Source: a virus (taxonomy: Duplodnaviria; Heunggongvirae; Uroviricota; Caudoviricetes). Taken from it: a stretch of 35,878 bases of DNA. A program made the translations under genes and the position numbers. Below the pieces are notes generated by a model. That model saw only the letters and a list, made by a program, of their open reading frames with translations. It was not told where the DNA came from and made no database searches. Positions 4,181 to 34,500 of the stretch are shown here, one piece after another; position 1 is the stretch's first letter, and each line of letters begins with the position of its first letter. Where the stretch lies: the IMG/VR virus record IMGVR_UViG_2703718854_000001; one strand, given 5' to 3'.

Positions 4181-6458
4181 AGCCTCCGGGCGTTTTGTCC
4201 CTCCGTCAGCATTTGCCGCAGACACCGGTAAGACGTTTACCGGTGCTTATGCATGGAACGCGCCACGCGAGGCTGTCGGGCGCGAAAGACCCCTTACACG
4301 TGACGAGATGCGTCAGGTGCAAGGTGTTTTATCCACGATAAATCGCCTGCCTTATTTTTTGCGCTCGCTGTTTACTTCACGCTATGACTACATCCGGCGC
4401 AATAAAAGCCCGGTGCACGGGTTTTATTTCCTCACATCCACTTTTCAGCGTCGTTTATGGCCGCGTATTGAGCGTGTGAATCAGCGCCATGAAATGAACA
4501 CCGACGCGTCGTTGCTGTTTTTGGCAGAGCGTGACCACTATGCACGCCTGCCGGGAATGAATGACAAGGAGCTGAAAAAGTTTGCCGCCCGTATCTCATC
4601 GCAGCTTTTCATGATGTATGAGGAACTCTGCGATGCCTGGGTGGATGCGCATGGCGAAAAAGAATCGCTGTTTACGGATGAGGCGCAGGCTCACCTGTAT
4701 GGTCATGTTGCTGGCGCTGCACGTGCTTTCAATATTTCCCCTCTCTACTGGAAAAAATACCGTAAAGGGCAGATGACCACGAGGCAGGCATATTCTGCCA
4801 TTGCCCGTCTGTTTAACGATGAGTGGTGGACTCATCAGCTTAAAGGCCAGCGTATGCGTTGGCATGAGGCGTTACTGATTGCTGTCGGGGAGGTAAATAA
4901 AGACCGTTCACCTTATGCCAGTAAACATGCTATTCGTGATGTGCGTGCGCGCCGCCAGGCAAATCTGGAATTTCTTAAATCGTGTGACCTTGAAAACAGG
5001 GAAACCGGCGAACGCATCGACCTTATCAGTAAGGTGATGGGCAGTATTTCTAATCCAGAAATTCGCCGGATGGAGCTGATGAACACCATCGCCGGAATTG
5101 AGCGTTACGCCGCCGCAGAGGGTGATGTGGGGATGTTTATCACGCTGACCGCGCCGTCAAAGTATCACCCGACACGTCAGGTCGGAAAAGGCGAAAGTAA
5201 AACCGTCCAGCTTAATCACGGCTGGAACCATGAGGCATTTAATCCAAAGGATGCGCAGCGTTATCTCTGCCGTATCTGGAGCCTGATGCGCACGGCATTC
5301 AAGGATAATGATTTACAGGCCTACGGTTTGCGTGTCGTTGAGCCACACCACGACGGAACGCCGCACTGGCATATGATGCTTTTTTGTAATCCACGCCAGC
5401 GTAACCAGATTATTGAAATCATGCGTCGCTATGCGCTCAAAGAGGATGGCGACGAAAGAGGAGCCGCGCGAAACCGTTTTCAGGCAAAACACCTTAACCG
5501 GGGCGGTGCTGCGGGGTATATCGCGAAATACATCTCAAAAAACATCGATGGCTATGCACTGGATGGTCAGCTCGATAACGATACCGGCAGACCGCTGAAA
5601 GACACTGCTGCGGCTGTTACCGCATGGGCGTCAACGTGGCGCATCCCACAATTTAAAACGGTTGGTCTGCCGACAATGGGGGCTTACCGTGAACTACGCA
5701 AATTGCCTCGCGGCGTCAGCATTGCTGATGAGTTTGACGAGCGCGTCGAGGCTGCACGCGCCGCCGCAGACAGTGGTGATTTTGCGTTATATATCAGCGC
5801 GCAGGGTGGGGCAAATGTCCCGCGCGATTGTCAGACTGTCAGGGTCGCCCGTAGTCCGTCGGATGAAGTTAACGAGTACGAGGAAGAAGTCGAGAGAGTG
5901 GTCGGCATTTACGCGCCGCATCTCGGCGCGCGTCATATTCATATCACCAGAACGACGGACTGGCGCATTGTGCCGAAAGTTCCGGTCGTTGAGCCTTTGA
6001 CTTTAAAAAGCGGCATCGCCGCGCCTCGGAGTCCTGTCAATAACTGTGGAAAGCTCACCGGCGGTAATACTTCGTTACCGGTTCCCACGCCTTCTGAGCA
6101 CGCCGCAGCAGTGCTTAATCTGGTTGATGACGGTGTTATCGAATGGAATGACCCGGAGGTCGTGAGGACGCTCAGGGGTGCATTAAAACACGGACTGAGA
6201 AGACCAAACCGTCAGCAAAGAAACGGAAGCCCGTTAAAACCACATGAAATTGCGCCATCGGCCAGACTGACCCGGTCGGAACGAATGCAAATCACCCGTA
6301 TCCGCGTTGACCTTGCTCAGAACGGTATCAGGCCGCAGCGATGGGAGCTTGAGGCGCTGGCGCGTGGGGCAACCGTAAATTATGGCGGAAAAAAATTCAC
6401 GTATCTGGTTGCTAATGAGTGGTTCGGGTTTCAAGATGACGTGTCATTTTTCATATAA
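4170..6458 (+). CDS. A: Replication initiation protein A (rolling-circle nickase), about 762 aa
   Basis: Size and position match P2 A (761 aa); HWH and YIAKYISK motifs are typical of rolling-circle initiators; start taken at the in-frame ATG at 4170. Confidence 0.88.
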   Translation: MDVKASGRFVPPSAFAADTGKTFTGAYAWNAPREAVGRERPLTRDEMRQVQGVLSTINRLPYFLRSLFTSRYDYIRRNKSPVHGFYFLTSTFQRRLWPRIERVNQRHEMNTDASLLFLAERDHYARLPGMNDKELKKFAARISSQLFMMYEELCDAWVDAHGEKESLFTDEAQAHLYGHVAGAARAFNISPLYWKKYRKGQMTTRQAYSAIARLFNDEWWTHQLKGQRMRWHEALLIAVGEVNKDRSPYASKHAIRDVRARRQANLEFLKSCDLENRETGERIDLISKVMGSISNPEIRRMELMNTIAGIERYAAAEGDVGMFITLTAPSKYHPTRQVGKGESKTVQLNHGWNHEAFNPKDAQRYLCRIWSLMRTAFKDNDLQAYGLRVVEPHHDGTPHWHMMLFCNPRQRNQIIEIMRRYALKEDGDERGAARNRFQAKHLNRGGAAGYIAKYISKNIDGYALDGQLDNDTGRPLKDTAAAVTAWASTWRIPQFKTVGLPTMGAYRELRKLPRGVSIADEFDERVEAARAAADSGDFALYISAQGGANVPRDCQTVRVARSPSDEVNEYEEEVERVVGIYAPHLGARHIHITRTTDWRIVPKVPVVEPLTLKSGIAAPRSPVNNCGKLTGGNTSLPVPTPSEHAAAVLNLVDDGVIEWNDPEVVRTLRGALKHGLRRPNRQQRNGSPLKPHEIAPSARLTRSERMQITRIRVDLAQNGIRPQRWELEALARGATVNYGGKKFTYLVANEWFGFQDDVSFFI

Positions 6459-6535
6459 AACATTTCAAAATTCAATGTAATGAAAGCATATCGTATATCG
6501 CTTTAATATGTGTTATTCTTCTTGGTTGTTAATGT

Positions 6536-6563
6536 TTGATTTTATATGAAAAAATATTATATA
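6536..6563 (+). promoter_or_regulatory. Candidate sigma70 promoter for the RT locus (TTGATT, 16-nt spacer, TATATA)
   Basis: Sequence match only, in a very AT-rich segment where chance matches are common. Confidence 0.25.
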
Positions 6564-6619
6564 TAGAAAGATCAAATACAACGGTTTACTTGTTATGATG
6601 CAATTATTGGTTAGTTAGT

Positions 6620-6870
6620 GAGATACATCGCCATCAATTGGGTATTTTTTACCCGTGGAAAGTTAACACTTTCTACCGTTTACCCCGCGCAACGCCCCTG
6701 CCAGCGACAAGAGTCACAGGACCAGGTGGTATGGCGTATGGGAATTCGAACCCTTTGGGCGACAAAGGGTTCGTGGAGCAGGGAGCTAGTGCTGTTCAAT
6801 CTCATCCTTATGAGGGCGAACCATAGTGTTGGAGCAGACATACCGTTTGCACACTATGGGCATAAGGAGC
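6620..6870 (+). ncRNA. Candidate structured non-coding RNA or leader upstream of the RT operon (possible retron msr-msd)
   Basis: Perfect 11-bp hairpin at 6747-6773; 9-bp stem 6821-6829/6851-6859 nested in an 8-bp stem 6805-6812/6861-6868 that pairs with the downstream Shine-Dalgarno; the overlapping ORFs have no ribosome-binding site and look non-coding. Confidence 0.3.
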
Positions 6871-6875
6871 AAATC

Positions 6876-7031
6876 ATGAAGAATGATAAATTAACCAACG
6901 AACAGCAGGCGCAGAACAAGTCAAACCTGAAAAAGAGGGCTGGTTATGCTTGGGAATTATTCAAATGGGGTATTAGACTGTTTGATTTAGTCACTCGAGC
7001 ACTGGACTACTTAGAAGGGGGTGGTGAGTAA
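6876..7031 (+). CDS. Small protein (51 aa), first ORF of the RT operon
   Basis: ATG at 6876 with AAGGAG 6 nt upstream; hydrophilic N-terminus and amphipathic C-terminus; no recognisable domain. Confidence 0.35.
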   Translation: MKNDKLTNEQQAQNKSNLKKRAGYAWELFKWGIRLFDLVTRALDYLEGGGE

Positions 7032-7067
7032 TGCGTCCTCCCTAGTTTCAATAGCATGGAGTTGCCT

Positions 7068-7376
7068 ATGTTACATAAAGCCCTTCGTTTAATAAGGCAA
7101 TACCATAAAGAATCAATAGTTGAGTTATCTTCATCTTTAGGTATTCCAAAAGACAAAATAGTATCGCTTGAAAGCGGAGTTTGGTCACCGTCGATTGAAG
7201 TCTTAGAGCGTTACGCCTCCCATTTCGACATACCAGTATCCTCTTTAGTATTCTTTTCGGAATCATTAGGCACGCAAGGCCGTTTGTCTAAGCGATTGCG
7301 TTTAAATTTAGCCGGTAAAGTTCTGGATGTTCTGGAGTGGGTAAGTAATAAAAATGAAAAAACGGAAAAAGCTTAA
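7068..7376 (+). CDS. XRE-family HTH protein (about 102 aa) immediately upstream of, and overlapping, the RT gene
   Basis: Cro/C1-like HTH (SIVELSSSLGIPKDKIVSLESG); GGAG 6 nt upstream of the ATG at 7068 (alternative ATG at 7056); 3' end overlaps the RT start by 23 nt. Confidence 0.65.
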   Translation: MLHKALRLIRQYHKESIVELSSSLGIPKDKIVSLESGVWSPSIEVLERYASHFDIPVSSLVFFSESLGTQGRLSKRLRLNLAGKVLDVLEWVSNKNEKTEKA

Positions 7377-8304
7377 GGTTAATACTAAAAATAAATCTTA
7401 TGACATAATGGATTCGCCATTTTACAAACTCAAAAGTAAAAGAAAACTGGCGAATTTGCTTTGTGTTAGTCTTGAAGAATTATACTCTTTGAGAAAAGAT
7501 GAAGGAAACTATTCCGTTTTTGAGCAACTTTCTAAAAAAGGAAAAGCACGAAAAATACAAAAGCCTTTAGAAAAACTAGAACTTGTACATACACGAATTG
7601 CAAGTTTGTTATCACGGATTGCTTTGCCAGAATATCTGCACTCGGGGAAGAAGAAGTGCTCTAATGTGACGAATGCTAAAGCTCATCTTAATAATGAAAA
7701 GATGATGACAACAGATATTAAAGCTTTTTTTCCATCAACTACAAGAGGGATGATATTTTCTTTTTTCTTTTCGATGATGAAAATGTCATCTGATGTTGCT
7801 GATGTTTTGTCCCACATATGTACTTGTCATGACCGATTACCAACAGGTAGTCGCATCAGTATGCCGTTGGCATATTTTGCAAATTCAAGAATGTTTGGTG
7901 AAATATATCAACTTTGCCAAAAGTTACGAGTTAACATGACTGTTTATGTTGATGATCTCACTTTTTCAGGTGGTAACGTAAATCGATTGTTTTGCGCTGT
8001 AATTCGTAAGATCGTTAATAAGCATGGACATGTTATACACCCAACGAAAACAAAATTATATGCCAGAGATAAGCCTAAGTTGGTAACTGGAGTTATTGTA
8101 TTCGGTAATGCTTTAAAAGTTAGGAATGAGCAGCATTTTTTGATGGCTAGGGAAATAGATTATTGGAAAATAATTAAAGACGCCGAAAATGCGAGAGAAA
8201 CAATCATTGCCAAAAAGCTCTTTGGCCGTTTGCATTCAATGGGAGTGATTGAGCAACGTTACAAATCGAAGGTGCTTACTTTAAAGGCTAATACTGCAAA
8301 TTAA
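7354..8304 (+). CDS. Reverse transcriptase, retron-type (316 aa)
   Basis: YVDD active-site motif; NAKAH (NAxxH), DIKAFFPS, LPTGSxxSxxLA and a VTG motif (KLVTGVIVF) align block by block with the retron Ec86 RT recalled from memory; 316 aa is retron-sized; AT-rich cargo. Confidence 0.8.
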   Translation: MKKRKKLKVNTKNKSYDIMDSPFYKLKSKRKLANLLCVSLEELYSLRKDEGNYSVFEQLSKKGKARKIQKPLEKLELVHTRIASLLSRIALPEYLHSGKKKCSNVTNAKAHLNNEKMMTTDIKAFFPSTTRGMIFSFFFSMMKMSSDVADVLSHICTCHDRLPTGSRISMPLAYFANSRMFGEIYQLCQKLRVNMTVYVDDLTFSGGNVNRLFCAVIRKIVNKHGHVIHPTKTKLYARDKPKLVTGVIVFGNALKVRNEQHFLMAREIDYWKIIKDAENARETIIAKKLFGRLHSMGVIEQRYKSKVLTLKANTAN

Positions 8305-8427
8305 CATATTGAATGTATTGCATAAAAGCATCAATAATTAAAATGACTTGGCGTTAGTAACGCCGCAAGTGCAGGAATTTACTTTCGATGCAGGCGGCGT
8401 TGATTAGAAACCTCAGAAAGTAGTTAG

Positions 8428-8865
8428 CTATGAAGCTGACGTCACAAAATTAACGCCAAGAGTCAACAGGTTTGTCACTGCTCCAGCAATTACACCTGGA
8501 GTTCCGTCTTTTACTGCACTGATAATTTTATCACCCATCGTTTCATTACCGCCAAGTGCTTCGGGTTTTTTGTTGAGCACCGCGAGTGCTTTCTCGGTCA
8601 GGCGCACATCATGAAAACCGGTCTGATGGTCTGTTCCGTACAGAATATAGCCGTTTTCGCTTAGGAAAGTGAATGTGCCATCAACCACACTACGCAACTG
8701 ATTCAGTGCTTTCATTTCTGGTGAGTTAAGTTGGTCAAAGTAGTCATCAGGTAACGCGGCGTTAAATTTTTTGTAGGTGATGACTTGTGGTACAGGAAAG
8801 TTATCCCATAGCACCGCAAAGATTTCTGCCGTCTGTTGGTTGAATAATTCGAGATTTTTGGACAT
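8428..8865 (-). CDS. Hypothetical protein (145 aa) with a predicted C-terminal transmembrane anchor
   Basis: Good Shine-Dalgarno (GAAAGGGAA); C-terminal hydrophobic stretch GVIAGAVTNLLTLGVNFV; convergent with the RT gene. Confidence 0.55.
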   Translation of the reverse strand: MSKNLELFNQQTAEIFAVLWDNFPVPQVITYKKFNAALPDDYFDQLNSPEMKALNQLRSVVDGTFTFLSENGYILYGTDHQTGFHDVRLTEKALAVLNKKPEALGGNETMGDKIISAVKDGTPGVIAGAVTNLLTLGVNFVTSAS

Positions 8866-9196
8866 GCATAGTTCCCTTTCATCAATTAAAGACCCTTATG
8901 CCGACTGGGCAAAGAGGCTAACTGTAATGGCCTCAAATAACGACCTGAGCTCTCGCGAGGTGGATAGTTACACTGAAAAAATGGTTGAACAAGCCAGTAA
9001 AGATGAGCTTATGGTCGTTATAAAATACCTGTTAAATCACATCAGAATGAATAAATAAAATGATCTATATCAAGATGTTATCTCACATTTATGAAAGTCC
9101 GTGGACAACGATTTTTCTGCTAATTGTTGTCAGTACGTGCCTCAACAGTGTGATTGGTGCATTGCGCGGCCAGTGACAACTATAAAAATTGATCAG

Positions 9197-9224
9197 AACC
9201 GGCATCATGAATGCCGGTTTTTTT
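9197..9224 (+). terminator. Rho-independent terminator (9-bp GC-rich stem, T-run)
   Basis: aaccggcat-catga-atgccggtt followed by tttttt. Confidence 0.5.
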
Positions 9225-9382
9225 GTGCTTTTTCTGTGATATCCCCGTTTTTATCTGTGCATGCAATATGTGCATGGTTTTGCATGTGCCGGAGTTACAT
9301 GTTCTGGCCGTGCGTCCGCCAAGACTGGCGTGGCTCAAAAGCGGTATTGCAACTGCATTAAAACCGCCCCATGAAGCGGGCG

Positions 9383-9401
9383 GGCGAGGCGGGGAAAGCA
9401 C
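9383..9401. other. cos site: P2-type 19-nt cohesive-end sequence GGCGAGGCGGGGAAAGCAC
   Basis: Exact match to the P2 cohesive-end sequence as I recall it; lies between the old/tin-type region and Q, as in P2. Confidence 0.55.
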
Positions 9402-9545
9402 TGCGCGCAGCCCGTCAAGAATAAAAAACTCTCTTGCAGGTAGAAAACATTCTGTTAACATTTGTCTGGATGAAGTTTAAGTTAGAAATTTATGTTAATG
9501 AACTGATTGATACTTATGTTTTGTCAATAATTTAGGAATGTTAAG

Positions 9546-10754: not shown

Positions 10755-11774
10755 CTATAGGGTGTATTGTCTGAATTTTATTACATTCTGACCGAGCCAG
10801 CCGTTTATTTCCCGAATCCTGTCCTGTAACGGGATAAGCTCATTGCGGACAAAGACCTTTGCCACTTTCTCAATATCACCCAGCGCCCCGACGTTCTCCG
10901 GCTTGCCGCCCATCAACTGAAAGGGGATGCGGTGCGCGTCCAGCAGGTCTGCGGCGCTGGCTTTTTTGATATTAAAAAAATCATCCTTCGTTGCCACTTC
11001 ACTGAGCGGGATAATTTTAATGCCGTCGGCTTTCCCTTGTGGGGCATAGAGAAACAGGTTTTTAAAGTTGTTGCGGCCTTTCGACTTCACCATGTTTTCG
11101 CGGAGCATTTCGATATCGTTGCGATCCTGCACGGCATCGGTGACGTACATGATGTATCCGGCATGTGCGCCGTTTTCGTAATACTTGCGGCGGAACAGCG
11201 TGGCCGACTCATTCAGCCAGGCAGAGTTAAGGGCGCTGAGATATTCCGGCAGGCCGTACAGCTCCTGATTAATATCCGGCTCCAGCAGGTGAAACACGGA
11301 GCCGGGCGCGAAAGGTGTCGGCTCATGGAAGGACGGCACCCACCAGTAAACATCCTCTTCCACGCCACGGCGGGTATATTTTGCCGGTGAGGTTTCCAGT
11401 CTGATGACCTTACCGGTGGTGCTGTATCGCTTTTCCAGAAACGCATTACCGAACACCAGAAAATCCAGCACAAAGCGGCTGAAATCCTGCTGGGAAAGCC
11501 ACGGATGCGGGATAAATGTCGAGGCCAGAATATTACGTTTGACGTAAATCGGTGAGCTGTGATGCACGGCAGCACGCAGACTTTTTGCCAGACCGGTAAA
11601 GCTGACCGGTGGCTCATACCATCTGCCGTTACTGATGCACTCGACGTAATCCAGAATGTCACGACGGTCGAGTACCGGCACCGGCTCACCAAAGGTGAAT
11701 GCCTCCATTTTCGGGGCGCTGGCGGTCATTTTTTTTGCCGCAGGTTGCGGTGTTTTCCCTTTTTTCTTACTCAT
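10755..11774 (-). CDS. Q: Portal protein
   Basis: 339 aa at the position of P2 Q (344 aa); stop/start overlap with P. Confidence 0.88.
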   Translation of the reverse strand: MSKKKGKTPQPAAKKMTASAPKMEAFTFGEPVPVLDRRDILDYVECISNGRWYEPPVSFTGLAKSLRAAVHHSSPIYVKRNILASTFIPHPWLSQQDFSRFVLDFLVFGNAFLEKRYSTTGKVIRLETSPAKYTRRGVEEDVYWWVPSFHEPTPFAPGSVFHLLEPDINQELYGLPEYLSALNSAWLNESATLFRRKYYENGAHAGYIMYVTDAVQDRNDIEMLRENMVKSKGRNNFKNLFLYAPQGKADGIKIIPLSEVATKDDFFNIKKASAADLLDAHRIPFQLMGGKPENVGALGDIEKVAKVFVRNELIPLQDRIREINGWLGQNVIKFRQYTL

Positions 11775-29846: not shown

Positions 29847-32286
29847 CAATGTAAAATTACAGGTATTGCTCAGGGCTGTTGACCAGGCATCCCGCCCGTT
29901 TAAATCCATCCGCACAGCGAGCAAGTCGCTGTCGGGGGATATCCGGGAAACACAAAAATCACTGCGCGAGCTGAACGGTCAGGCATCCCGTATTGAGGGG
30001 TTCCGCAAGACCAGTGCACAGCTCGCCGTGACTGGTCAGGAACTGAAAAAAGCCAGACAGGAAGCCGCAGCACTGGCTGTCCAGTTTAAAAATACTGAAC
30101 GACCAACAAATGCACAGGCAAAGGCAATGGAAGCCGCGCGTAAAAATGTGTCGGAGTTACAGGCGAAATATAACAGCCTGAGATTGTCGGTACAGCGCCA
30201 GCGTCAGGAACTGAGTCAGGCGGGTATTAATACCCGTAATCTGGCGCATGATGAACGAGGGCTGAAAAACCGTATCAGTGAAACCACCGTACAGCTTAAC
30301 CGGCAGCGTGACGCGCTGGCGCGTGTCAGTGCGCAACAGGCAAAACTTAACGCAGTAAAACAGCGTTATCAGGCCGGAAAGGAACTGGCCGGAAATATGG
30401 CCTCAGTGGGCGCTGCCGGTGTGGGGATTGCTGCTGCGGGAACGATGGTCGGAGTTAAGCTGCTGATGCCCGGTTATGAGTTTGCGCAGAAAAACTCAGA
30501 ATTGCAGGCCGTGCTAGGAGTGGCAAAAGACTCCGCCGAAATGACCGCACTCCGCAAGCAGGCGCGCCAGCTCGGCGACAATACCGCAGCCTCGGCAGAT
30601 GATGCGGCCGGTGCGCAGATTATCATTGCGAAAGCGGGTGGAGATGCTGCGGCTATTCAGGCGGCAACGCCGGTCACGCTGAATATGGCACTGGCGAATC
30701 AGCGGTCGATGGAAGAAAACGCGCAACTGTTGCTGGGGACTAAGGCATCCTTTCAACTGTCAAATGATGATGTCAGCCATGTGGGCGACGTGTTGTCGGC
30801 AACGATGAATAAGTCGGCGGCTGATTTTCAGGGACTCAGTGATGCACTGACTTACCTCGGGCCGGTTGCGAGGACTGCAGGTGTAAGTCTTGAGCAGGCA
30901 GCAGCCATGACAGGTGTGCTGCATGACAATAACATCAGGGGGTCAATGGCGGGGACGGGTAGCAGTGCCGTTGTCACCCGATTACAGGCACCGACTGGAA
31001 AAGCATGGGATGCACTCAAAGAGCTTGGCGTTAAAACCTCGGACAAAAAGGGAAATATGCGTCCGTTGTTCACCATTCTGAAAGAGATTCAGGCCAGCTT
31101 TGATAAACACAAGCTGGGAACGTCTCAGAAGGGGGAATACCTTAAAACCATTTTTGGTGAGGAAGCCCTGAAATCAGCGAACGTTTTACTGGCAGCGGCA
31201 GCAAGCGGAAAACTGGATAAGCTGACCGCCACGCTGAAAGCCTCGGACGGTAAAACGGAAGAGCTGGTTAAAATCATGCAGGATAACCTCGGCGGTGACT
31301 TTAAGGAGTTTCAGTCCGCTTATGAGGCGGTGGGGACTGACCTGTTTGACCAGCAGGAAGGCGCACTGCGTAAGCTCACGCAGACGGCCACAAAGTATGT
31401 GTTAAAACTCGACGGCTGGATACAGAAAAATAAATCACTGGCGTCAACCATCGGCCTCATTGCCGGTGGCGCACTGGCGCTGACTGGCATCATCGGTGCC
31501 ATTGGTCTTGTAGCCTGGCCGGTTATCACCGGCATTAATGCCATCATCGCGGCAGCAGGCGCAATGGGGGCAGTCTTCACGACGGTTGGCAGTGCTGTTA
31601 TGACGGCCATCGGGGCGATTAGCTGGCCGGTTGTGGCTGTGGTGGCCGCCATTGTCGCCGGGGCGTTACTTATCCGTAAATACTGGGAGCCTGTCAGCGC
31701 ATTCTTTGGCGGTGTGGTGGAAGGGCTGAAAGCGGCATTTGCGCCGGTGGGGGAACTGTTCACGCCACTTAAGCCGCTGTTTGACTGGCTGGGCGAAAAG
31801 TTACAGGCCGCGTGGCAGTGGTTTAAAAAACTGATTGCCCCGGTTAAAGCCACACAGGACACCCTGAACCGTTGCCGTGACACGGGCGTCATGTTCGGGC
31901 AGGCACTGGCTGACGCGTTGATGCTGCCGCTTAATGCGTTCAACAAACTGCGCAGTGGTATTGACTGGGTACTGGAAAAACTCGGTGTCATCAACAAAGA
32001 GTCAGACACACTTGACCAGACCGCCGCCAGAACTCAAGCCGCCACGTATGGCACCGGTGGTTATATTCCGGCGACCAGCTCTTATGCAGGCTATCAGGCT
32101 TATCAGCCGGTTACGGCACCGGCTGGTCGCTCTTATGTGGACCAGAGTAAAAACGAATATCACATCAGTCTGACGGGCGGTACTGCGCCGGGGACTCAGC
32201 TCGACCGCCAGTTACAGGATGCGCTCGAAAAATACGAGCGGGATAAACGTGCGCGCGCCCGTGCCAGCATGATGCATGACGGTTAA
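29839..32286 (+). CDS. T: Tail tape measure protein, 815 aa
   Basis: Length and position match P2 T; coiled-coil N-terminus and Gly/Ala-rich transmembrane-like middle. Confidence 0.9.
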   Translation: MSNNVKLQVLLRAVDQASRPFKSIRTASKSLSGDIRETQKSLRELNGQASRIEGFRKTSAQLAVTGQELKKARQEAAALAVQFKNTERPTNAQAKAMEAARKNVSELQAKYNSLRLSVQRQRQELSQAGINTRNLAHDERGLKNRISETTVQLNRQRDALARVSAQQAKLNAVKQRYQAGKELAGNMASVGAAGVGIAAAGTMVGVKLLMPGYEFAQKNSELQAVLGVAKDSAEMTALRKQARQLGDNTAASADDAAGAQIIIAKAGGDAAAIQAATPVTLNMALANQRSMEENAQLLLGTKASFQLSNDDVSHVGDVLSATMNKSAADFQGLSDALTYLGPVARTAGVSLEQAAAMTGVLHDNNIRGSMAGTGSSAVVTRLQAPTGKAWDALKELGVKTSDKKGNMRPLFTILKEIQASFDKHKLGTSQKGEYLKTIFGEEALKSANVLLAAAASGKLDKLTATLKASDGKTEELVKIMQDNLGGDFKEFQSAYEAVGTDLFDQQEGALRKLTQTATKYVLKLDGWIQKNKSLASTIGLIAGGALALTGIIGAIGLVAWPVITGINAIIAAAGAMGAVFTTVGSAVMTAIGAISWPVVAVVAAIVAGALLIRKYWEPVSAFFGGVVEGLKAAFAPVGELFTPLKPLFDWLGEKLQAAWQWFKKLIAPVKATQDTLNRCRDTGVMFGQALADALMLPLNAFNKLRSGIDWVLEKLGVINKESDTLDQTAARTQAATYGTGGYIPATSSYAGYQAYQPVTAPAGRSYVDQSKNEYHISLTGGTAPGTQLDRQLQDALEKYERDKRARARASMMHDG

Positions 32287-34344: not shown

Positions 34345-34372
34345 TAAAAAATAAGCCCGTGTAAGGGAGATT
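34345..34372. repeat. attR core, 28-bp direct repeat identical to attL; it is the 3' terminator end of cyaR
   Basis: Exact repeat of 491-518. Confidence 0.8.
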
Positions 34373-34432
34373 ACACAGGCTAAGGAGGTGGTTCCTGGTA
34401 CAGCTAGCATTTTATGGGTTATGTTTTTCAGC
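34346..34432 (-). ncRNA. cyaR: CyaR (RyeE) Hfq-dependent small RNA
   Basis: The reverse complement of 34346-34432 reads GCTGAAAAACATAACCCATAAAATGCTAGCTGTACCAGGAACCACCTCCTTAGCCTGTGTAATCTCCCTTACACGGGCTTATTTTTT, which matches the E. coli CyaR sequence as I recall it, including the terminator. Confidence 0.8.
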
Positions 34433-34500
34433 GAAACGGATGATAACCTTAATAAATGCAGCTGTATGTGATCGGTTTCTAAGAATTTTCCATCCGGGAA
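34433..34500 (-). promoter_or_regulatory. cyaR promoter region with a candidate CRP half-site
   Basis: On the minus strand, a TATCAT -10-like element lies just upstream of the CyaR 5' end, with TCACA-containing CRP-like sequence further upstream; CyaR is known to be CRP-activated. Confidence 0.3.

Follow-up and report, generated by a model that had tools for sequence, protein, structure and literature searches.

A divergent copy of a conserved hairpin element probably separates a Type VI retron from its neighbouring cargo in a P2/186-like prophage

Between a reverse transcriptase (RT) gene and a convergent gene for a protein of 145 amino acids (aa), a virus sequence of the Caudoviricetes (IMG/VR record IMGVR_UViG_2703718854_000001) carries a set of nested inverted repeats, the nature of which is the subject of this report. 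The whole stretch of DNA that was analysed, 35,878 nucleotides (nt) in length, is a P2/186-like prophage and is referred to as the window. The repeat region, which was originally predicted to be either an alternative site for the non-coding RNA (ncRNA) of a retron or a site of recombination or processing at a cargo boundary, is with considerable confidence identified here as a divergent copy of a ~69-nt element composed of two hairpins, HP1 and HP2, and not as a retron ncRNA. As judged from the alignment of its copies, the element is a covarying, strand-specific structure; it is unannotated and absent from Rfam, and in the classical phage 186 it delimits a cargo slot on the inner side. Its mode of action is a more tentative matter: an RNA 3'-end, processing or insulator mechanism is a plausible reading that still falls short of probable, while identification and mechanism, taken together as one statement, are favoured to a small degree.

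Definition and distribution of the element

The 145-aa gene was traced in E. coli genomes, in deposited phages, in one genome per species and in IMG/VR. Beside its stop codon a long hairpin is present where the left neighbour is a Type VI retron, a DinI/Tum-like gene, an open reading frame (ORF) of 69 aa, a GNAT gene or a Fic gene, and no such hairpin occurs at those loci where ComEC is located to the left of the 145-aa gene. In addition, a 16-nt pattern taken from the conserved 3' flank of the hairpin was scanned against IMG/VR. The hairpin is present in 73 of the 82 matches to this pattern, most of them beside right-hand genes unrelated to the 145-aa gene. The consensus of the element reads AAC-(16-bp variable stem)-loop-(stem)-GTT GAACAA CGAGC-NNN-GCGAG GCGTTAG, in which the long variable stem constitutes HP1 and the short hairpin in the 3' half constitutes HP2.

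The element is found in 69 phage records, including 186, PSP3, Wphi, EtG and Midge, as well as in about a tenth of the complete E. coli genomes (525 of 5,426), which harbour one to three copies each, all without annotation; homology between these genomes does not extend beyond the element. P2 itself lacks it. Identity in the flanks on both sides remains at the random level (0.27-0.39), as opposed to 0.91-0.94 in the 3' half of the element, a conservation that is partly imposed by the 16-nt search pattern in loci L066-L185 and that still amounts to 0.91 in the bias-free set that was collected via the protein. Since the same element stands beside dozens of unrelated right-hand genes, it is not the 3' untranslated region (UTR) of the 145-aa gene, and this candidate reading is likewise rejected in view of phage 186, which carries the element though there is no leftward gene at that site.

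Searches against Rfam returned no match at E<=1 in positions 6400-9500 of the window, nor at the element in loci L010 and L012, and the record of phage 186 does not annotate the element. Among the papers on the P2 hotspot, a word search found no hairpin, stem-loop or terminator in PMC13586616 and no hairpin or intergenic in PMC9122126, the older phage 186 literature being outside this search.

Structure and strand of the element

The evidence that HP1 is maintained as a structure comes from 56 distinct copies, none of which originates from the lineage of the window. Both sides have changed at 15 of the 19 pairs of the stem and 91% of the cells are paired, with up to six pair types per position; in a first set of 27 copies, both-side changes occurred at 12 of the 19 pairs and 93.2% of the cells were paired. 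None of 500 shuffles of the 56 copies reaches any of these measures, a statistic that is inflated because the copies are related by descent. Firmer evidence than the shuffles is provided by the slid-register control, in which 31-43% of the cells are paired, by the many pair types and by a ten-to-one asymmetry of wobble pairs. RNAalifold recovers the same helix and predicts only HP1, and the AAC/GTT closure of the stem covaries once, being AAT/ATT in locus L034. Taken together, these patterns indicate that HP1 is kept by compensatory changes.

Moreover, the stem favours one strand. When HP1 is read as the - strand, only 83.2% of the cells are paired, and the wobble asymmetry amounts to 107 G·U cells, distributed over 16 pair positions, versus 11 A·C cells at 9 positions. 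Because G·U pairs so far outnumber A·C combinations, the element is concluded to fold in the + sense, in which gpA, the retron and the phage 186 SOS operon are also read. Folds of the + strand are usually the more stable ones, with locus L034 as the extreme (-38.4 versus -16.9 kcal/mol). HP2 alternates between a form with tandem G·A and a Watson-Crick form, and since these two forms make sense on the + strand only, they point to folding of this strand as well. As a separate observation, HP2 flips between CGAGC..GCGAG and CTCGC..GCGAG in otherwise identical backgrounds (L085 versus L100, and other copies). Two bases change in such a way that one arm becomes exactly complementary to the other, as is typical of quasi-palindrome template-switch mutation.

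Two further readings of the structure were rejected. A family-wide long-range pairing between the AACGCC at the base of HP1 and the GGCGTT at the stop codon, as predicted for locus L010, is unsupported, as loci with a changed left arm (L012, L044, L057) retain GGCGTT unaltered. Readings of the top of HP1 and the linker as a LexA box or an IHF site were made by eye, deviate from the proper spacing or consensus and fall at varying positions.

The copy in the window

A covariance model of the 56 distinct copies, termed R1, was applied to the whole window with filters switched off. Its match at 8351-8427 on the + strand attains 27.6 bits (E 5.7e-6), compared with 11.7 bits for the next best match in the window and 11.1 bits for the same site on the - strand, while the sister copy of O157:H7 scores 35.5 bits. 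HP1 of the window displays the same 19+5+19 register as the family, in which the loop comprises 4-7 nt, and retains the AAC/GTT closure. Its lower 8 base pairs are perfect, and the whole stem consists of 12 Watson-Crick pairs, 3 G·U pairs and 4 mismatches, the latter being located in the upper stem. The conserved motifs of the 3' half (GAACAA, CGAGC-N3-GCGAG, GCGTTAG) were not found in the window, where only the leading GA and the terminal GTTAG are kept and no HP2 is present. Because this half has diverged so strongly, the window copy is to be regarded as a degenerate member of the family. Two substitutions distinguish it from the O157 copy, both at paired positions of HP1 and both unpairing them. 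The position agrees with that of the family, in that the copy lies on the + strand downstream of the co-oriented gpA and ahead of cos and the leftward portal gene (Table 1).

The repeats themselves are correctly described by the original prediction. Four copies alternate, GGCGTT on the + strand at 8350-8355 and 8396-8401 and AACGCC at 8359-8364 and 8452-8457. The inner pair, AACGCCGC (8359-8366) and GCGGCGTT (8394-8401), is a perfect 8-nt inverted repeat and forms the base of HP1. The outer pair, CTTGGCGTTA (8347-8356) and TAACGCCAAG (8451-8460), is a perfect 10-nt inverted repeat, the right arm of which lies in the 3' coding end of the 145-aa gene, where the ORF translation gives the codons Leu-Gly-Val-Asn. 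In 3000 dinucleotide shuffles of 8305-8460, some 6-mer occurred four times together with its complement in 3.1% of the cases and a perfect inverted repeat of at least 10 nt in 1.3%, and both features coincided in 0.23%.

Folding of 8300-8470 yields -50.1 kcal/mol on the + strand (z -4.63) and -46.3 kcal/mol on the - strand (z -4.18), and in neither case was any of 200 shuffles as good. The nested structure that had been proposed is indeed the predicted minimum fold of this segment on both strands. Comparative support extends to one part of it only: the inner hairpin covaries in the homologues, whereas the outer helix lacks such support. In local folds the inner hairpin (-21.1 kcal/mol on the + strand, ~-18 kcal/mol on the - strand) dominates over the short hairpin between copies 1 and 2 (8350-8364), for which only ~-8 kcal/mol (-7.8) is predicted. 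A promoter belonging to the element itself was considered and rejected, as the left flank is unrelated between contexts and the sequence TTGAAT-18-AATAAT at 8309-8338 is within chance (11 found by the scan, 13.2 expected).

The outer pair

Among all loci fetched, GGCGTTA..TAACGCC is confined to the window and to L001, L004 and L018-L022, which represent the E. coli lineage with retron plus 145-aa gene. At the other junctions of retron and element, different spacers take the place of the left arm, and most relatives spell the same residues of the right arm as GGT GTC AAT. In the O157 sister lineage, the right arm is TAACACCAAG, owing to a synonymous C-to-T change (in the mRNA sense; G-to-A on +) that yields C·A on the + strand and G·U on the - strand, and the left arm contains one extra T; both changes lower the complementarity of the + strand. 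The quasi-palindrome that the left arm forms with the 5' arm of HP1 (Table 1) is the sort of product that arises from template-switch extension of a hairpin. Judged by these comparisons, the outer pair appears to be a lineage-specific by-product, with no sign of selection for the outer helix in the two lineages compared.

The right arm is also part of a 17-nt stretch, TAACGCCAAG(A/C)GTCAA, that is shared with 16 matches between window positions 8451-8467 and the 3' end of P2 tin (L065, 3715-3731) and that encodes Leu-Thr-Leu-Gly-Val in both the 145-aa protein and P2 Tin. Homology of the two proteins was considered and not found by BLASTP (E 0.17, in a different segment); the match could be a recombination scar or chance (~1% for the 10-mer).

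The Type VI retron and its non-coding RNA

The pair of RT and helix-turn-helix (HTH) genes to the left of the repeats is assigned by sequence to a Type VI retron, and together with a small protein (SP) gene it appears to constitute a complete SP-HTH-RT unit with its ncRNA upstream. In Retron-Vpa2 and Retron-Eco12, the Type VI ncRNA is located upstream of and contiguous with the SP gene (bioRxiv 10.1101/2025.10.22.683967), and the same placement is realized in Retron-Sen3 (10.64898/2026.04.27.721009). This ncRNA comprises several stem-loops at most ~280 nt from the SP start, including one variable internal stem (10.1101/2025.10.22.683967; 10.64898/2026.04.27.721009). The predicted architecture at 6590-8304 of the window matches that of these published retrons: the segment 6560-7060 folds with a z of -4.05, and across six retron lineages, the RTs of which are 81-86% identical, the ~300 nt before SP are near-invariant and better conserved than the proteins, except for a single variable internal stem that contains an 18-nt indel and is likely the msd stem.

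The suggestion that the repeats downstream of RT are an alternative site of the retron ncRNA did not hold, given that Type VI ncRNAs reside upstream of SP and that a structured, near-invariant region is found exactly there. The repeats lie beyond the RT stop codon and are not inherited together with the RT lineage. On the one hand, a related retron in E. coli strain 405 (L002) is followed by an unrelated spacer and an FRG-domain gene and is devoid of the element; on the other hand, the element occurs without any RT in phage 186, in Midge, in the GNAT, DinI and Fic contexts and in hundreds of prophages. Furthermore, five junctions of retron and hairpin exhibit different spacers with no sequence in common. 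Adjacency to the RT gene and the superficial resemblance of nested inverted repeats to a1/a2 plus an msd stem are what speaks for a retron template RNA (msr-msd) or a second retron RNA downstream of RT, the probability of which is practically negligible. Likeness to the Type VI hybrid RNAs of Retron-Vpa2, Retron-Eco12 and Retron-Sen3 is hence one of neighbourhood only, whereas the element is on the wrong side of the operon, independent of RT and not kept among related retrons. For practical purposes, nothing downstream of RT should be cloned as part of the retron.

Map position and the cargo boundary

The element occupies one position on the phage map. It is co-oriented with gpA and located 226-2899 nt downstream of it in all 81 copies with gene A on the fetched DNA, and the portal gene follows downstream on the opposite strand in 84 of 84 copies. 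Its neighbours are convergent or arranged end to end, their stop codons being no more than a few bases away from it on either side, and 61 distinct right flanks exist among the copies. Locus L075 has two rightward genes in succession, a DinI-like gene followed by a 69-aa ORF, each with a copy of its own right after the stop codon. In phage 186, the element is located at 30344-30412, between the stop codon of orf97 and the annotated terminator t95b, 24 nt before t95b and ~210 nt from the right cohesive end, and according to the annotation it is part of the LexA-controlled p95 (tum-orf97) transcript.

The cos-adjacent hotspot extending from gpA to gpQ was described by Rousset et al. 2022 (PMC9122126), and the region of the window under study is that hotspot. 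Window positions 9195-9385 align with the stretch from t95b to cos of phage 186. From these comparisons, the element and the t95b/cos region are the fixed borders of one cargo slot, which is filled here by a module of the 145-aa gene and a 64-aa gene, and the retron is cargo in a second slot between gene A and the element. The 145-aa stop codon directly abuts the 3' end of the element, and among the compared loci the 145-aa gene adjoins many different left neighbours. The present arrangement reflects insertion of the retron to the left of the element and of the 145-aa/64-aa module between the element and the t95b-like terminator. With respect to the proposed site at a cargo boundary, the position stands, as both ends of the element coincide with synteny breaks; in related prophages it is the inner hairpin that marks this boundary, whereas the outer pair occurs only in the lineage of the window.

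Proposed role and alternative explanations

The element is tentatively proposed to act as RNA within the 3' untranslated part of rightward transcripts. Because HP1 is a continuous 19-bp helix without a U-tract, it would either set or protect RNA 3' ends or serve as a processing site for a double-strand RNase of the RNase III type, with the effect that convergent cargo would be insulated from rightward read-through. The near-invariant 3' half could additionally act as a short patch of homology at which the cargo on either side is exchanged. A second homologous crossover has been postulated for exchange at the hotspot (Rousset et al., PMC9122126), and the 3' half of the element could supply it.

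Several points weigh against this proposal, apart from the inflation of the shuffle statistics and the part of the 3' half conservation that is due to the search pattern. The putative RNA role is deduced from the strand bias and the annotation of phage 186, and the bias towards the + strand fits single-stranded DNA equally well. The element is dispensable, as is evident from P2 and the retron locus L002, which lack it. The window copy, with four mismatches in the upper stem and the loss of HP2, may no longer be functional. Finally, the outer helix may have a role in the lineage of the window after all, given that on either strand the nested fold is the one of lowest predicted energy.

A transcription terminator between convergent genes, acting in both directions or leftward for the 145-aa gene only, is an unlikely alternative explanation of the element. 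The location between closely spaced stop codons suits it, the 3' flank of the - strand is mildly U-rich throughout the family (GUUUAUUAAU, GUUUUCUAU), and a simple terminator scan flagged one weak hairpin on the - strand of the window (8364-8350, followed by AAGTCATTTT), so that in the leftward version GGCGTTACTAACGCC together with AAGTCATTTTAATTATT would be the working terminator in this lineage. As was noted originally, the hairpins are no classical terminators, since no T-run follows them on the + strand. The sequence behind HP1 is GUUGAUUAG in the window, and neither HP1 nor HP2 is followed by a U-tract in the family, where the sequence at this place is always GUUGAACAAC. On the - strand of the window, only the weak hairpin 8364-8350 with AAGUCAUUUU comes into question. 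At most 3-4 U follow on the - strand, in a flank that is replaced at each cargo swap. Moreover, the phages use textbook terminators elsewhere (t95b; 9195-9221; 9383-9364), the true one of 186 following 24 nt after the element; the G·U bias speaks for the + strand; and the hairpin of copies 1 and 2 (-7.8 kcal/mol) competes with HP1 (-18 kcal/mol), which is transcribed earlier. A passive linker, that is, an island of shared homology that persists via recombinants and in which the repeats of the window are neutral palindrome debris, is considered very unlikely. It would account for the sharp junctions on both sides, the eroded window copy and the flip of HP2 between CGAG and CTCG, the extra quasi-palindrome arm resembles the result of template-switch mutation and not of selection, and a second homologous crossover has been postulated as stated above (PMC9122126). 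However, a neutral linker should keep its sequence, whereas the sequence of HP1 varies freely with the pairing being kept (15 of 19 pairs covary), and among the substitutions G·U prevails on one strand by a factor of ten.

That the element operates as folded single-stranded DNA and not as RNA is distinctly unlikely; this reading has two versions. The structure might be a priming or primosome-loading signal on the + strand as displaced by gpA-driven rolling-circle replication, or a strand-specific recombination site for cargo cassettes, similar in kind to integron attC sites or to the strand transfer that HUH nucleases carry out. Folding is strand-specific and concerns the strand with the gene A coding sequence and the annotated nick site, the element always follows gpA at a distance of 0.2-2.9 kb, both junctions to variable DNA fall exactly at its ends, and two-copy arrangements reminiscent of cassettes exist. 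The AAC...GTT closure is followed by GTTGAAC, which fits GTTRRRY of the attC consensus (RYYYAAC...GTTRRRY), and the heptamer CGCCTCG is found both on the - strand of the element and at the ori nick site of P2. Against this reading, P2 is able to replicate although it lacks the element, L boxes were not recognised, and the left flank is variable and not complementary to GAAC. No gene for an integron-type integrase was seen in those annotated neighbourhoods that were inspected, a search dedicated to it not being part of the analysis. The 7 nt in common with the P2 ori nick site and the 8 nt (GCGAGGCG) in common with the cos overhang are both within chance and were rejected as candidates, and the cos of phage 186 does not covary. 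Homologous recombination via the conserved 30-nt half explains the sharp junctions without a dedicated enzyme, and the single change of AAC/GTT to AAT/ATT in L034 is the way in which base pairs covary. There is a slim chance that crossover in the P2/186 defence hotspot takes place at the element itself, as a strand-specific folded structure, either attC-like or used by the HUH nuclease gpA of the phage or by a host enzyme, where cargo cassettes would be excised and inserted. If this were true, it would explain why unrelated genes end exactly at the first or last bases of the element with their stop codons running into it, as well as the two-copy cassette arrangements and the extra GGCGTTAG-like half-site that, in the window, abuts the element on the retron side.

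Comparison with known systems and significance

Protective or processing stem-loops in 3' UTRs are known from the REP-type stabilisers of mRNAs and from the RNase III site sib of phage lambda, which controls int. Among the systems compared, the element seems most like these. Common to both are a long, mostly continuous helix without a U-tract that is placed right after stop codons and upstream of the real terminator, the reading on one strand, the location between convergent units and a number of one to three copies per element-bearing genome. In contrast to REP sequences and lambda sib, the element is a distinct ~69-nt family with a second small hairpin and a near-invariant 3' half, it is confined to one map position of 186/P2-like phages, and it is known here from sequence. 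With intrinsic terminators such as t95b of phage 186 it shares a G+C-rich hairpin between convergent gene ends, but it possesses no U-tract on the best-folding strand and 3-4 U on the other, and an annotated terminator follows 24 nt further on.

The likeness to integron attC sites consists in an imperfect, strand-specific hairpin with a variable stem in which AAC...GTT is kept, in the adjoining GTTGAAC resembling GTTRRRY, and in the location exactly at cassette junctions, where the stop codons of the neighbours run into the element. Unlike attC, the element is much shorter, has no L boxes or documented extrahelical bases, is not accompanied by an IntI-type integrase in the neighbourhoods inspected (a dedicated search was not part of this), has a left flank that is not complementary to the right core, and is usually present in one or two copies and not in arrays. 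It resembles both 3'-UTR stem-loops and attC sites without clearly showing the defining features of either. With the linker sequences of modular phages and the P2 hotspot (PMC9122126), it has in common that a short conserved island lies between interchangeable modules, here from gpA to gpQ; as opposed to a passive linker, the element shows selection on structure.

The region between gpA and cos of P2-like prophages ranks among the richest known reservoirs of anti-phage systems, and the way in which cargo is exchanged there has still to be explained (PMC9122126, PMC13586616). The element offers a precise landmark for this cargo, dividing it into a left slot from gpA to the element and a right slot from the element to t95b/cos. 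It is furthermore a candidate for the second homologous crossover point in cargo exchange, and a candidate RNA that may keep SOS or early phage transcription from reaching the defence genes. In itself the element is of moderate interest, which would increase if it were the exchange site of the hotspot.

Layout of the window

Table 1. Features in and around the hotspot region of the window
Feature	Position	Strand	Basis or remark
Replication gene A (gpA)	ends 6458	+	
Predicted retron ncRNA (non-coding part of hybrid RNA)	~6590-6875	+	upstream of SP gene
Small protein (SP), 51 aa	6876-7031	+	
Helix-turn-helix protein	7056-7376	+	PADLOC HTH_VI 7.7e-31
Type VI retron reverse transcriptase	7354-8304	+	PADLOC RT_VI 3.9e-105, Pfam RVT_1
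Intergenic region with repeats	8305-8427		between convergent RT and 145-aa genes
Left outer arm CTTGGCGTTA	8347-8356		quasi-palindrome with HP1 5' arm: CTTGGCGTTA-G-TAACGCC(GC)AAG
Probable divergent copy of HP1-HP2 element	8351-8427 (including 8 nt of 5' flank as modelled)	+	covariance model R1
HP1	8359-8401	+	19-position stem, 5-nt loop; base = inner repeat 8359-8366/8394-8401
Element 3' half (linker, HP2 position, terminal GTTAG)	8402-8427	+	GATTAGAAACCTCAGAAAGTAGTTAG versus consensus GAACAACGAGCCCCGCGAGGCGTTAG
145-aa gene, phrog_2266, function unknown	8428-8865	-	PHROG match 2.4e-61
Right outer arm TAACGCCAAG	8451-8460		- strand reads CTT GGC GTT A(AT) = Leu-Gly-Val-Asn of 145-aa protein
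64-aa gene, phrog_2454, function unknown	8864-9058	+	
Canonical intrinsic terminator, homologue of phage 186 t95b	9195-9221	+	terminator scan and alignment to 186 right end
cos overhang GGCGAGGCGGGGAAAGCAC	9385-9403		
ParA-like ATPase gene, 378 aa	9546-10682	+	between cos and portal gene
Portal gene	10755-11774	-	

The start codons of the 145-aa gene on the - strand and the 64-aa gene on the + strand overlap (CATG), and the two genes form a mobile module that occurs beside varied neighbours in P2-like phages of Escherichia, Klebsiella, Salmonella and Citrobacter. A hydrophobic tail rich in glycine forms the C-terminal end of the 145-aa protein. At some loci (L075), just the first ~20 codons of the 145-aa gene are left, fused to the element.

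On the far side of this cargo, the 61 nt at 9348-9408, which contain the cos overhang GGCGAGGCGGGGAAAGCAC and a hairpin at 9364-9383, have matches in over 2,000 E. coli genomes. With megablast, the alignment to the complete E. coli genomes (5,426 in all) extends no further than position 9408, so the ParA-like cargo is absent from them; in other strains, the place of the ParA-like gene is taken by other genes, which points to a second variable slot beyond cos. The sole Rfam match of the window at gathering level is the CyaR/RyeE small RNA gene at 34349-34434 on the - strand (100.7 bits), near the far end of the prophage. Finally, several complete E. coli assemblies (e.g. NZ_CP115376.1, position 4081) are rotated to begin at the ATG of the prophage gene A, which is annotated there as a replication endonuclease and was presumably taken by start-fixing software for the initiator of the replicon.

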